A stretch of DNA of 34,722 bases. Origin: Candidatus Nomurabacteria bacterium (GTDB lineage Bacteria; Patescibacteriota; Minisyncoccia; Phycocordibacterales; UBA9973). Positions 23,554 through 34,722 of the stretch are shown piece after piece (positions within the stretch are counted from its first letter, which is position 1; each line of letters starts with the position of its first letter). Where the stretch lies: NCBI GenBank assembly GCA_943350045.1, contig CALQZW010000003.1, forward strand, positions 1 to 34,722, given 5' to 3'. The notes beneath the pieces are model-generated. The model had not been told where the DNA came from. It ran no database searches and saw only the letters and a list, made by a program, of their open reading frames with translations. A program made the translations under genes and the position numbers.

Positions 23554-24411
23554 TTAGAATGGAATAGTATCGGACGACTTTGATTTTGAAGCGAGTTTCT
23601 TTTTTAGTGATCGCTTGCCAGCTTCGAGGCGCTGAATCTTTCTCGAGAGCTGATGCACGCGAATGGCCAGAAGGATAATACAGATGATGAGTATCAAGAA
23701 GGCGCTCCCACCATAGAGAACATATCTATCTGAAAGAAGTGTGATAAACGAGAATCGCGGGGCTTTTTGTGGAGCTGGTTCGCTTTGAGTTGAAATAGGA
23801 ACTTCAGGCTCAGGAACTATCGGCGTTGGCTCTATCGGAGCCGGCTCGATTGGCTTAGGCTCAGGTGGAGCAGTTTCTTTTGGTTTCTCAGTCTCTATCG
23901 GAGCCGGTAGAAGCGTAAAGCTTGCAGAGCCGAGGGCATTTGTAATGTCACTTCCCTCTCCATCATTTGCTAAAATGAGACCATTTGAAAACTTCACCAT
24001 AGCAACGCCCTCTTTCTTTACTCGAAACGTAACAGTGAATACAGTTCGTGGAGCACCTTGATATCCAGAGAGTGAAATTCCTTCAAAACGTATACTACCC
24101 GACCCCGGTGTGTAAATTGGACCGTCAGCTCCTGGCGGTAGCCAGTTTGTTAGAAGTGAGCCAGACTTACTTACTGAAACAACAGAGAGAAGGTCTGCGG
24201 GATATGAAAGCGTTCCGCTAATTGCGTTCAGCGGAGCTGAATAGCTTGAGGCACGCACTGTTACAGAAAATGTTTTTCCTTCAGTGTATGATCCTGTTGC
24301 AGGAAACACAGAAAGCATAGCCGCCTGAGATATCTGCGGAAAGAAAAACAGCAGTGCAAGAAAAAGACTACTTGCTACTTTTTTCGCATGAGCTTTTGTA
24401 TGGACTTCCAT
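23554..24411 (-). CDS. Cohesin-domain protein with Pro-rich stalk and C-terminal membrane anchor
   Basis: Signal peptide; GKTFSVTV..LNAISGTLSYPADLLSVVSV..IRFEG..VFTVTFRVKKEGVA.VKF...ANDGEG; PIEP stalk; TM helix and basic tail. Confidence 0.8.
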   Translation of the reverse strand: MEVHTKAHAKKVASSLFLALLFFFPQISQAAMLSVFPATGSYTEGKTFSVTVRASSYSAPLNAISGTLSYPADLLSVVSVSKSGSLLTNWLPPGADGPIYTPGSGSIRFEGISLSGYQGAPRTVFTVTFRVKKEGVAMVKFSNGLILANDGEGSDITNALGSASFTLLPAPIETEKPKETAPPEPKPIEPAPIEPTPIVPEPEVPISTQSEPAPQKAPRFSFITLLSDRYVLYGGSAFLILIICIILLAIRVHQLSRKIQRLEAGKRSLKKKLASKSKSSDTIPF

Positions 24412-25292
24412 CTATATATAAGTATCGCACAAAGAATAAGAAGAGCAACGCCCAAAAGGAGAGGAAATACGGGGATTGAAGATTTCTGCAAAGCCTCTGG
24501 TATTTCGGCTTCAGCAAGACGCTGATTGCCGGCGCGATCAAAGGCTCTCACGGAAACAGAAGAGAGTTTCTTTTGGTTTTTTAGCACGTACGGGCTCGTT
24601 GTGCGTACCCACTCTCCGTTGTTCTCTCGCACTTCATAGTACACGATTCCTCCACCGAGGTCTTTTGTCGTAAACACAACGACATATGCGCCGTCAAAAA
24701 GTAGCTCGTCAGTGACAATTACAGGAGTAAATGGAAGCGGTGCCTCAGTGTCTGTCGGGCGAGTAATTACCGTACTCGTACTACTCGTTGCGTTCAGTGA
24801 GAGAGCAGAATACGTCACGGCGACGCGTGTGCCACTGCCATCGTTTCGATATACTTCGGGATTTTTAGCGGAAATTGAAATTGGACCAGTTGTCTTTGGG
24901 ATAAAATATAGACGAATCAGCGAGCCCGGAGCACGGCTTGTCGTATCAAATGGGTCAATATATCCGTTAAAGCCTCCAGGAATAATTCCAGAAAATGAAA
25001 GCTCTCCGGCAGTTTTTTCTGTTGGGTTCTCTACCCAGAGTGGAATAATAGACTGCCCTTCGTTGCTATACGCATAGGACACTGTCTCGGGAAACGTAAT
25101 CGTTAACCCAGCAGTGTTTACGGATTCACCTTGCGTATCCAGATATACGTCGACATAAAACTCTTGTCCAACGGAAACTTCGCGCGAAGATGGAACGAAA
25201 GAAATCTGCGCGGCAAAAACACTCTGCGGTGTATAGATATATACAAAACAGAGACTGAGCACAATGAATGATGTTCGAAAAAAATTCTTCAT
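24375..25292 (-). CDS. Cohesin-domain protein with second Ig-like domain and C-terminal membrane anchor
   Basis: Signal peptide; VGQEFYVDVYLDT..VNTA..ITFP..LSFSGIIPGGF..LIRLYF..NDGSGT; DTEAPLPF..VRAFDRAGN; TM helix. Start placed at ATG 25292. Confidence 0.8.
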   Translation of the reverse strand: MKNFFRTSFIVLSLCFVYIYTPQSVFAAQISFVPSSREVSVGQEFYVDVYLDTQGESVNTAGLTITFPETVSYAYSNEGQSIIPLWVENPTEKTAGELSFSGIIPGGFNGYIDPFDTTSRAPGSLIRLYFIPKTTGPISISAKNPEVYRNDGSGTRVAVTYSALSLNATSSTSTVITRPTDTEAPLPFTPVIVTDELLFDGAYVVVFTTKDLGGGIVYYEVRENNGEWVRTTSPYVLKNQKKLSSVSVRAFDRAGNQRLAEAEIPEALQKSSIPVFPLLLGVALLILCAILIYRWKSIQKLMRKK

Positions 25293-34400: not shown

Positions 34401-34722
34401 CGGGTGCGTCTTCAAAACCGACGTCGATACGCATAGCATCGAGATACACTACAGGCATTTTGTCGAATGTCTGAATCGGCTCAAGTGCAATCTGGAGTCG
34501 AGAAACATCGTCCCATGTTCCAAGCTCTGCGTCACTAATACTAAAACGCGCGCTACTCCAGTTTGACATGCTCACCGTTCCAAGGTCACGCCAATCATTT
34601 CCATTGAGTGTGTAGCGCACCATCATGAAGTCTCCAAAGGTAGAGTCTGGAGCTGGAGCAACAGCACCACCCGCGTCACTAGCGTTCTCACCCTCCTCGG
34701 AAACAACTGTTTCTTCAGTAGA
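28486..34722 (-). CDS. Giant surface adhesin-like protein (>2078 aa, 5' end outside the window) with beta-helix-like repeats and C-terminal WxL/pilin-like domain
   Basis: Frame stays open from 34626 to the edge (STEETVVSEEG...); G/S/T-rich repeats (F/LYNLTI, FTAGTSTV); ends YIANISSTTPPGAYSTNLTYIVTGTF. Confidence 0.9.
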   Translation of the reverse strand, partial: STEETVVSEEGENASDAGGAVAPAPDSTFGDFMMVRYTLNGNDWRDLGTVSMSNWSSARFSISDAELGTWDDVSRLQIALEPIQTFDKMPVVYLDAMRIDVGFEDAPEAELPPTIELNDPDLTIISTEKDIFASAEEPTFDVTNPNLSVYDIAELVDAKKATVIEDKAGIYGAPTQEHTDTKDSPEQEQQDSSLFDKLKDVISDTIPSANVANAQSEADVAPAIDIEILDALGEEVSINASVERVVVDGETRNRITIEKPGRRFRPGKFSLKVTLHTPEALLVSRQDFSWGVLAVNTNKSIYAPEDEAYIQMGVLDDYGHTICDAVLVMRIDGPSGAPIFKRTSDGSIVQDPECGPDNVISVPDYHSRVALPDTPGVYTIRLAATTVNGTRTLVDSFEVRTSHPFVVSRTGPTRIFPVAVYPVSMTISSPTDWEGTVIERVPASFIISDHPDFPAPVSNIVSGDIRILTWNVSLTGGSSRTIGYRFDAPDISPEFYVLGPVSLYPGSSSASSGVAIFEEARQWQIASDAICSSQVSSGVWSDAGTWNCGRVPNSGDSAIISAGHTISLDMDATGANALLGLTINGTLDASALSCATGSRSCNITAPTLTIGATGTYLAGTDSTITLTTAGAVPFTLTSGGVFTAGTSTVVMTGGAGISINSGAITGSNAFYNLTINGGGTKNMTAAIDITNDLNVMLGVLDTNNTSNWPLSAGRIIIANIGTASISARASTITLTATSGTLFTRAASGGFTAGTSTIRVVSDADITFLNGATIFRNVTFAPVLTANRTYTLGSSPTISSGILLVSPSGTGTLTAELNGAVNLGASGYLQVEGTGSALGQFSTSSSNHSFTAGGFIVNTGGEFLANASTITLTANSGTHMTHLGTGVFTAGTSTVLITSTLAVTLSTGAFNGTSALYNLTIQGSSTKTLGADIDVSNITTITSGTIDTNISSNYTLSTGYLVMANSGSAVFTTRASTIRLTGTSGTLFTKGASSNLNNSGASTFLVTSDADITFLSGNTTFRNVTFAPVLTANRVYTIGSTPALSTGTFTINPSGTGTLTVPLNASTTFGATGNLVVGGSGGATGIFDTTPSNYATSVGTLTINDGGQFIANGSTVTLSATAGTNLTRNGSGVFSGGTSTILISSTLATNLNAGSFTGTNALYNLTLNGTGIKTMQADLEVMNAITITVGVLDLNSVGNYTVTTGSLSLANSGSAGINARAGTIILNANSGTLFTRGVSGLFNVNTSEFIVRSTSGTPSLISSAVSFHKLTIDSTATVINAGAAITIANAAGAQLYIKQGVLNDGGLGILLAGTTLNSMQIDAGGTLCLGGTVSASNTSATCNSGTTSTTVRGLPLFPTITLDPASTIIFLSDAAHTATHVPSTVTYGNVVISPTLTANRAFTFATGTTTIAGNLAIMPTGTASTLTVNMAGPLSVAGVTTIQRLGSNSSATLSTNTSNALSTGSLVVGGGACTGSSCTFTAGSSNISLTGTSGTLFTLGTGGIFTAGASTVFLSGNGNANINSGTIAFNALTQTGTGTKTLTGPISIASTRALTISAGTFDPASHLVTGSGSNTLSVANGATIRVGASTFAGNYSAGFSTITLSSGSTVDYNLAGTQTIDQGLSYSNLTTSGVSGVKTLGGNTTAGGTVSLDGGATLDTGSNYSLDADGIVFNGGTLAGNASLITVSGTSGTPIVYTSGSLTGTSTITLTGNNGSGNTTIPAGLSYHNLRVNNGSETYVSTGTLSVAGTLTAMAGTLDLDTFNTTAGNIDIDSGATLLGGSGTATLSGSWNNDGTFTAETSTISFTGAGTATISGSTDFYNLNISHTAAKEVNFSVSGSPIFGVTNHFNATGIGGGLVKLYSTASGTQWKFNPTGTSYVRYVDVKDGGCEMGANMMTVIGSTDSGNNDSCWAFSTISFSLSTAVSDATIGFGALSSTAPKFCTADEAGSYTEVEAHSIAITAESAGGYMLTVQGSPLSNGSHTLAPMGSSNIASIPGTEQFGLRSVATGGSGVVEALYSGSGFGFPASASTIPSVVAQSTVGDGVTTTYSMRYIANISSTTPPGAYSTNLTYIVTGTF
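30870..32820 (-). repeat. About 2.5 degenerate tandem repeats of 245-246 aa (735-738 bp)
   Basis: YNLT motifs at 32701, 31966 and 31228; GCACTGGAGCGAATGT (FAPVL region) at 32376 and 31638; end points approximate. Confidence 0.85.

Follow-up and report, generated by a model that had tools for sequence, protein, structure and literature searches.

The Pam pilus, reported in 2026, is an usher-less donor-strand-exchange fiber of candidate phyla radiation (CPR) bacteria (Troman et al. preprint, PMC13278184). As the accessible text of that preprint describes it, electron cryomicroscopy (cryo-EM) resolved fibers of PamA and PamB in a cultured Saccharibacterium, Candidatus Mycosynbacter amalyticus (Saccharimonadia). 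In each Pam pilin, a linker strand connects the N-domain with an open C-domain, which accepts the linker of the next subunit. The PapD-like chaperones PamC and PamD carry a membrane helix at the C terminus; the tip subunit, PamT, has no linker; and the terminator, PamR, is anchored in the membrane and donates a strand from its N terminus. Pam prevalence was highest in Saccharimonadia and Microgenomatia, and loose, untethered pili were seen for the cultured organism. Here, a cluster of six genes (g1 to g6) was analyzed on a 34,722-nucleotide contig of a Candidatus Nomurabacteria bacterium (assembly GCA_943350045.1, contig CALQZW010000003.1; this whole stretch is referred to below as the window). 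We consider it probable that the cluster is a Pam-type pilus operon in which a strand-capping protein, g4, is tethered through its dockerin to the cohesins g5 and g6.

The locus shares with the Pam system a C-terminal acceptor domain, an interdomain linker, a homologous membrane chaperone, and the lack of an usher in the locus, as well as a tip without a donor strand, a candidate terminator with an N-terminal strand, and the order tip-pilin(s)-chaperone-terminator. It differs at the base, where no PamR was found in the genome and where g4, which is soluble and ends in a dockerin, is followed by two membrane cohesins; at the tip, where g1, a giant protein with repeats (at least 2078 aa), stands in contrast to the 248-aa PamT type; and in having one pilin gene rather than several.

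A further donor-strand pilus, the Elr/WxL pilus of Enterococcus faecalis, has been reported to be built by WxL/DUF916 clusters (Sleutel et al. 2026, bioRxiv 10.64898/2026.10.17.759780) and is said in the accessible text to be confined to Bacillota. By comparison with that text, the present locus would likewise encode a monoderm donor-strand pilus with a membrane DUF916-type chaperone, an acceptor-only modular tip adhesin, and a small terminator with an N-terminal donor strand only; moreover, the best fold match of g3 is WxLIP. In contrast, the Elr terminator is described as being anchored by LPxTG and sortase, neither of which was found here, and the pilins of this locus have no Pfam WxL match at the sequence level. 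With chaperone-usher pili (Pap/Fim, Csu, CFA/I, and Caf1), the locus has in common the donor-strand principle and the two-domain chaperone fold; however, there is no usher or outer membrane here, the chaperone is tethered to the membrane, the putative donor strand lies in an internal linker rather than in an N-terminal extension, and no sequence similarity is detectable. The fold of g5 and the calcium-binding repeats of g4 resemble those of known cohesin-dockerin pairs (e.g., the Clostridium perfringens GH84C cohesin-FN3 structure 2w1n and Archaeoglobus fulgidus 2xdh). Unlike in those pairs, no enzymes or carbohydrate-binding modules are attached here, the proposed cargo is a pilus, and the pairing is predicted from domain content. 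The cohesins here are single-domain type I membrane proteins.

The family membership of g1 to g3, the domain content of g4 to g6, the conserved gene order, and a common strand motif are directly supported. The Pam system is represented in NCBIfam by NF058581 (pilin C-domain), NF058579 (PamT), and NF058578 (PamR; RbmA-like, with a membrane helix); the adjacent numbers are unrelated to Pam (NF058580, a lipase; NF058582, a sorting signal). g2 passed NF058581 ("Pam pilus system pilin subunit," C-terminal acceptor domain) with 126.2 bits (cut-off, 55). Full-length g1 gave no NCBIfam match, but its C-terminal piece alone (the last 249 aa) scored 74.7 bits on NF058581 (cut-off, 55). These two genes were the sole matches to the model in the genome. 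Their C termini are 34% identical over 173 aa (E = 3e-15), which upholds the proposal of the initial annotation, made from the DNA alone, that the 360-aa subunit shares the C-terminal domain of the adhesin. Against the PamT model, g1 scored 60.8 bits, below the cut-off of 240. The center of g1 is rich in repeats with units of ~235 to 245 aa (residues 729 to 963 and 974 to 1209 are 56% identical), and weaker copies were found between about residues 595 and 1529 with the repeat unit as the query. Tandem Repeats Finder detected no repeats in the DNA of g1, and the protein atlas match for the first 540 residues of g1 reached only 0.78 and was uninformative.

g2 comprises, in order, a signal peptide, an N-terminal domain, a donor linker strand, and the Pam C-terminal acceptor domain. 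The linker, located just before the C-domain, is the most conserved stretch in the g2 family alignment. For reference, a canonical pam operon was available in G218, a complete genome from the same phylum, in which PamT (295.5 bits) and PamR (355.7 bits) both exceeded their cut-offs. The g2 family profile aligned with the PamB-like pilin of this operon with an hhalign probability of 99.6% (E = 3.1e-24), and the linkers of the two were aligned with each other. The same profile had no match among Protein Data Bank (PDB) sequences at E values up to 10. Neither g1 nor g2 had a Pfam WxL match, and their C-domains alone had no meaningful Pfam match at E values up to 10 at the sequence level; therefore, a sequence link to the WxL domain could not be shown.

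The AlphaFold2 model of g3 (pLDDT, 73.9) consists of two beta domains followed by a C-terminal transmembrane (TM) helix (residues 297 to 348). The top Foldseek match was WxLIP of E. faecium (9i1y; 4.7e-9), followed by CsuC, CfaA, Caf1M, and PapD (E values from 6.8e-8 to 1.8e-5). At the sequence level, Pfam WxLIP_PGBD (DUF916, PF06030) matched g3 with 22.8 bits, below the cut-off of 27.3, PF11797 gave no match, and the g3 profile reached WxLIP among PDB sequences only at an E value of 0.5. The description of g3 in the initial annotation as a membrane-anchored DUF916/PapD-like protein is borne out by the WxLIP/PapD fold match and the C-terminal helix, with the Pfam DUF916 match remaining subthreshold; both PapD and CfaA, which had been named there as structures for comparison, were matched by the model, with WxLIP the best.

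Profile comparison placed g3 among the Pam chaperones. The g3 family aligned with the chaperone beside PamR in the canonical pam operon over both domains and the helix (hhalign probability, 99.8%; E = 3.7e-30), and the chaperone of a second Pam-type locus in genome G218 aligned with the g3 family at a probability of 99.9%. This second locus is L085 (G218:C1:764000-778000), and its chaperone (ORF 6342-7406, plus strand) passed Pfam WxLIP_PGBD/DUF916 with 31.1 bits (cut-off, 27.3). At the level of a profile match, this protein ties the CPR Pam chaperones to the Bacillota WxL-pilus chaperones. No NCBIfam model was found for the g3-type chaperone.

The remaining three genes encode the putative base. 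g4 is made up of a signal peptide, an N-terminal donor-like strand, a poly-Gly linker, two Ig-like domains, and a C-terminal dockerin, which matched Pfam Dockerin_1 with 28.4 bits (cut-off, 22.9); Pfam also called the Ig-like domains. Throughout the g4 family, the mature chain opens with a conserved strand that closely resembles the pilin linker; a run of 8 to 15 glycines, the two Ig domains, and the dockerin come after it. Both calcium-binding repeats of the dockerin are kept in the family, with the Asp/Asn positions invariant in 27 sequences. g4 was the sole dockerin match in the genome and has no membrane helix. Using a crude hydrophobic-window test, a TM-like segment was detected in none of 80 dockerin proteins from related loci, compared with 74 of 81 chaperones, 47 of 74 first cohesins, and 56 of 61 second cohesins.

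g6 consists of a signal peptide, a cohesin domain, a Pro/Glu-rich spacer, a C-terminal TM helix recognized by reading the sequence, and a basic tail; its cohesin domain scored 25.9 bits with Pfam Cohesin in hmmscan (cut-off, 24.1). g5 had no Pfam cohesin match. It is 24% identical to g6 over 171 aa (E = 6e-5), g6 matched the g5-family cohesin profile at 1.6e-24, and g5 and g6 were the sole matches to that profile in the genome. A signal peptide and a cohesin domain in g5 are followed by an Ig-like domain and a C-terminal TM helix, both seen in the AlphaFold2 model (pLDDT, 90.9). The Foldseek matches of this model were almost exclusively cohesins (target-normalized TM-score up to 0.81), with a cohesin-plus-FN3 double module at the top. 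Thus, the soluble dockerin protein of the initial annotation is supported by the Dockerin_1 score and the lack of a membrane helix, and its two membrane-anchored cohesins are supported by Pfam and the sequence-read helix for g6 and by the model and the Foldseek comparison with cohesins for g5.

No match to PamR (NF058578; cut-off, 300 bits) was found in the genome, which is 86.6% complete. g4 was considered as a PamR orthologue, and this was rejected by hhalign (probability, 1.4%). The Ig region of g4 resembles a PamR-like membrane-anchored protein of the second Pam locus in G218 (27% identity over 157 aa; E = 4e-14), and PamR of the canonical operon likewise opens with a similar strand, which is followed by a Pro-rich linker. 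In the literature, papers that join dockerin and cohesin with CPR did not, as judged by titles and abstracts, concern pili, and a search for dockerin together with donor strand led only to a 2013 review. The dockerin-cohesin base seems undescribed; the pairing of g4 with g5 and/or g6 is predicted from domain content. In the cultured Saccharibacterium Southlakia epibionticum, SEML1_0315, which has a dockerin domain, was reported to be essential, and a glycan-targeting role was guessed for it in the accessible text of that report (PMC10633639, 2023); SEML1_0315 may be a g4-type pilus terminator.

The conservation of the locus was assessed in species-representative genomes scanned with the g3 family, which yielded 265 pattern matches, of which 186 were relatives; the 80 best loci were retained, and their open reading frames (ORFs) were called and classified with profiles from the g2 to g6 families. 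A pilin ended directly upstream of the chaperone in all 77 loci with room for one. A g4-type dockerin protein lay directly downstream of the chaperone in 74 of 77 loci; in one of the three loci missing it (L079), only a 161-aa fragment was present. The dockerin gene was followed by a cohesin ORF in 73 of 75 loci, and 59 of 68 had at least two cohesin ORFs; in one of the nine loci that lack a second cohesin, the gene is a single 670-aa fusion. The same gene order was seen in three further genomes, in one of which the C-domain ORF is 5528 aa long (G175:C1 near 60162). The relatives carry the source names Nomurabacteria, Paceibacterota, Kaiserbacteria, Minisyncoccia, and Uhrbacteria, together with automatic "Saccharibacteria" labels, and the nearest named ones are labeled Nomurabacteria or Paceibacterota. 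Conservation of gene order across Patescibacteria had been put forward in the initial annotation as a check on its proposal, with failure of the genes to co-occur in other genomes as grounds for abandoning it; the order tip-pilin-chaperone-dockerin-cohesins is kept in almost all of the 80 related loci.

The pilin is usually preceded by an ORF with a Pam C-domain but a different body (332 to 2636 aa). The tip ORFs with only the C-domain in common fall into size classes of about 332 to 340, 560 to 650, 960 to 990, 1300 to 1345, and 1916 to 2636 aa (L004 to L083). The range of tip sizes, from 332 to more than 5000 aa, points to host-specific, exchangeable adhesin bodies on a constant stalk and attachment module.

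A donor motif, [VILA]x[VIL][STN]Ax[VI], was written from the linkers of the g2 family and the strands of the g4 family and was counted in each ORF class. It was present in 74 of 81 pilins, about 165 to 195 residues from the C terminus and just before the C-domain, and in 72 of 80 dockerin proteins, mostly 26 to 73 residues from the ORF start and after the signal peptide. Cohesins (4 of 140) and chaperones (2 of 81) rarely contained it, and the background among unclassified ORFs was 124 of 3621 (0.25 per 1000 residues). Among the 55 ORFs classified by a C-domain only, the motif was absent from 40, at the pilin position in 12, and elsewhere in 3; the 12 are pilin-sized or truncated and are therefore probably pilins with divergent N-domains. 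In g1, the motif is absent before the C-domain, with the sole match at residue 236.

Insertion of the g4 strand was modeled with the g2 C-domain, from which its own linker had been removed, and residues 31 to 160 of g4. The median ipSAE was 0.59, compared with 0.00 for the best of three controls; the runs shared at least 67% of contacts, and the partner pLDDT was at least 61. Of 80 solved complexes, 58 reached the mark used for such models, as did 2 of 110 mismatched pairs; these counts hold only roughly because own alignments were used. Passing scores of 0.60 or less came from only 7 of the 80 solved complexes and from both passing mismatches.

Terminator types were surveyed across 301 sampled Patescibacteria genomes. 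Of these, 91 had a Pam C-domain match at E values up to 1e-3, and the match exceeded the cut-off in 27. The g4 profile matched 46 genomes at E values up to 1e-8, with 27 near-full-length matches as counted from the match table, and strong PamR matches occurred in 6 genomes (five above the cut-off and one at 295.6 bits). In this sample, the dockerin-type base is thus more common than the published PamR anchor (27 versus 6 genomes). No genome had both a dockerin-type and a PamR-type terminator, as expected if one replaces the other. Where positions were listed, a g4-type match lay beside C-domain matches in six genomes (G043, G211, G175, G295, G170, and G219); in three others (G015, G092, and G173), the two matches were distant from each other or lay on separate contigs.

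The genome totals 627 kb in 41 contigs, one of which makes up the whole window. The six ORFs lie on the minus strand at the right end of the window (Table 1), densely packed with gaps or overlaps between genes of -37 to +53 nt. The contig ends within g1, so the N terminus of g1 is lost; the N termini of g2 to g6, as judged by eye from the sequence, look like signal peptides. These features are as read in the initial annotation, which had listed six co-oriented, tightly packed genes at these positions with signal peptides wherever an N terminus was visible. It had also noted the absence of an usher, a sortase motif, and a glycoside hydrolase. Searches of the genome, given its incompleteness, returned no usher (PF00577) and no sortase match, no LPxTG-like motif was present within the last 60 residues of any of the six proteins, and Pfam and NCBIfam scans of g1 to g6 detected no glycoside hydrolase or carbohydrate-binding domain.

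Table 1. Positions of the pilus genes, of domains and strands within them, and of neighboring genes in the window
Feature	Position (nt)	Strand	Length	Remarks
g1, giant tip adhesin candidate	28486-34722	(-)	at least 2078 aa	Open at 5' end
g2, major pilin	27350-28432	(-)	360 aa	NF058581 match
g3, membrane-anchored PapD/WxLIP-like chaperone, PamC/PamD homologue	26258-27346	(-)	362 aa	
g4, terminator/adaptor candidate	25297-26226	(-)	309 aa	Dockerin_1 match
g5, membrane anchor candidate 1	24375-25292 from ATG	(-)	305 aa	Cohesin fold in model; listed TTG start at 25334 would give 319 aa
g6, membrane anchor candidate 2	23554-24411	(-)	285 aa	Pfam Cohesin match
Acceptor domain of g1	about 28486-28872			
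NF058581 match in g1	28489-28872			Placed by six-frame search
Donor linker strand of g2	27821-27853			Residues about 194-204
Donor-like strand of g4	26086-26118			Residues about 37-47
Dockerin of g4	25315-25458			
VirD4/TraD-like coupling ATPase	19906-22230	(-)		CxxC zinc finger; long Pro/Ala-rich tail
Secreted membrane-anchored protein	18420-19856	(-)		Lamin-tail and PKD domains
AbiEii toxin	14240-15016			
BBP2-matching ORF	12460-13521	(-)	353 aa	TTG start
SMC/AAA ATPase	9605-11920			
Type ISP restriction-modification enzyme	5030-8215			

These results suggest the following assembly pathway. By homology, all six proteins would be exported by Sec, and the membrane-tethered, two-domain g3 would hold the incomplete Ig-like C-domain of new subunits. 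Since g1 can accept a strand but cannot donate one, only the distal tip position would be possible for it, and there it would show its long, repeat-rich body to the host as an adhesin. g2, which has both a donor linker and an acceptor domain, would therefore polymerize into the shaft by donor-strand exchange. g4 would donate its N-terminal strand to the last g2 and, having no acceptor domain, would stop growth, a step suggested by the motif and by the weakly supported complex model. The dockerin of g4 may then engage the cohesin domain of g5, of g6, or of both, and the helices of these two proteins would keep the fiber on the membrane; domain content, gene order, and the count of one dockerin and two cohesins point to this step. 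More speculatively, the Pro/Glu-rich spacer (in g6) and the Ig domain (in g5) might serve to raise the cohesins through the wall.

The initial annotation had proposed that these modules form one machine, with g1 as the tip, g2 as the shaft, g3 as the chaperone, g4 as the terminator, and g5 and g6 as the anchor. The roles fit, since g1 has an acceptor domain without a linker, g2 has both, g4 has a donor-like strand only, and the gene order is conserved. Its claim of a candidate new surface-assembly system, in contrast, has been overtaken by the Pam pilus preprint (PMC13278184), the NCBIfam models, and the preprint on the Enterococcus WxL pilus (bioRxiv 10.64898/2026.10.17.759780), as far as their accessible texts go. 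With an usher-less fiber published in 2026, the core of the system reported here has already been described in its essentials. On what could be seen, neither the dockerin-cohesin base nor the connection of Pam chaperones with WxL chaperones is in print. The main text of the Pam preprint, as far as accessible, contains no mention of dockerin, cohesin, WxL, or DUF916, and its supplementary neighborhood data may already hold these families; the accessible text of the Elr preprint contains no mention of Pam, CPR, Patescibacteria, or dockerin.

Several observations weigh against a tethered Pam-type pilus at this locus. The acceptor groove of g1 and g2 is predicted from homology to PamA and PamB, and the fiber in this lineage is likewise a prediction. 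The strand-insertion complex was graded "weak support," with no interface given, and represents a modest rise in the odds rather than proof. When terminator strands were compared with the pilin linkers of their own genomes at the 54 loci with both strands, the score was 20.07, compared with 18.77 ± 0.57 for shuffled pairs, and 20 of 2000 shuffles reached it; this pairing is only slightly above the shuffles and is inflated because the genomes are related. At the base, g4 has no significant similarity to true PamR. Scanning the genome in six frames with Pfam Cohesin gave no match, even though g6 narrowly exceeds the threshold in hmmscan, so that such a search can miss weak domain matches. The g5 and g6 profiles also performed weakly against PDB sequences (E = 0.0025, to cohesins, for g5; E = 0.14 for g6). 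Two loci (L066 and L068) have neither dockerin nor cohesin genes downstream. Finally, the loci were picked via g3 and come from related species; the counts therefore represent conservation within a lineage and not independent events.

Some of these observations would also suit an arrangement of two systems side by side, in which g1 to g3 form a Pam pilus that is attached via its chaperone or shed and g4 to g6 form a separate module that displays g4, the motif of which would not be a donor strand. The distance of g4 from canonical PamR, the weak complex prediction, the modest strand pairing within genomes, and the untethered pili described for the cultured Pam organism in the accessible text of the preprint (PMC13278184) speak for such an arrangement. 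We nevertheless regard it as unlikely, given that the chaperone gene has a dockerin gene immediately after it in 74 of 77 loci, that the motif occurs at the mature N terminus of 72 of 80 dockerin proteins compared with 124 of 3621 background ORFs, and that PamR-type and dockerin-type terminators never occurred together in the 301 genomes, with PamR not found in the present one.

The absence of any fiber, with g1 and g2 as single surface proteins held one by one by g3 as in the older WxL-DUF916/DUF3324 picture, appears highly improbable. The same pilin family has been seen as filaments by cryo-EM (PMC13278184) and WxL clusters are now reported to form donor-strand pili (bioRxiv 10.64898/2026.10.17.759780), according to the accessible texts, and the conserved donor linker of g2 would have no role in single proteins. 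These considerations outweigh the best structural match of g3 to WxLIP, which includes a WxL-bound entry (9i25), its subthreshold WxLIP_PGBD match, and the presence of a single pilin gene and a single tip gene in the genome. The dockerin and cohesin domains might also suggest a cellulosome-like assembly that binds or degrades glycans, with g4 to g6 as scaffold parts, and the essential dockerin protein of a Saccharibacterium was speculated, in the accessible text, to target host glycans (PMC10633639). Such an assembly is scarcely credible here because g1 to g6 have no glycoside hydrolase or carbohydrate-binding domain and the genome (86.6% complete) has only one dockerin match; moreover, the module is fixed next to the pilin and chaperone genes.

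The surroundings of the operon were also inspected (Table 1). Horizontal transfer of the operon was considered and rejected, since its GC content (0.458) is near the genome mean (0.44). The left half of the window (positions 1-16500) has a lower GC content (0.395, versus 0.44 for the genome) and carries defense-type genes, namely, a Type ISP restriction-modification enzyme, an SMC/AAA ATPase, and an AbiEii toxin. An ORF in this half matches Pfam BBP2 (OmpL-like beta-barrel porin) with 94.7 bits, which is odd for an organism thought to have no outer membrane; the region has several overlapping ORFs on both strands. Downstream of the operon lie a glutamate dehydrogenase-like gene and then two more genes, the first for a VirD4/TraD-like coupling ATPase and the second for a secreted, membrane-anchored protein.

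Patescibacteria account for much of bacterial diversity and live attached to host cells, but the means of attachment has been worked out in only a handful of cases. The published description of the Pam pilus concerns a single cultured Saccharibacterium; the same machinery is found here in lineages labeled Nomurabacteria and Paceibacterota, with a different, modular base. A broader proposal, for and against which we see about equal weight, has two parts. Outside Saccharimonadia, most Pam-type pili of Patescibacteria would end in a soluble donor-strand/dockerin adaptor on membrane cohesins. Such a base would add a third mode of anchoring for donor-strand pili, the first being the usher and the second being sortase or a direct membrane helix, and would give cohesin and dockerin a structural, nonenzymatic role. 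The Pam (CPR) and WxL/Elr (Bacillota) pili would be branches of one old monoderm pilus family that shares a DUF916-type membrane chaperone. The likeness of the chaperone to WxLIP links two discoveries of 2026, neither of whose accessible texts mentions the other's system. If the cohesin-dockerin link is true, g4 and its cohesins would provide a testable protein pair that ties a fiber to the membrane without an outer membrane or a sortase, and the known jobs of cohesin-dockerin pairs would be widened.

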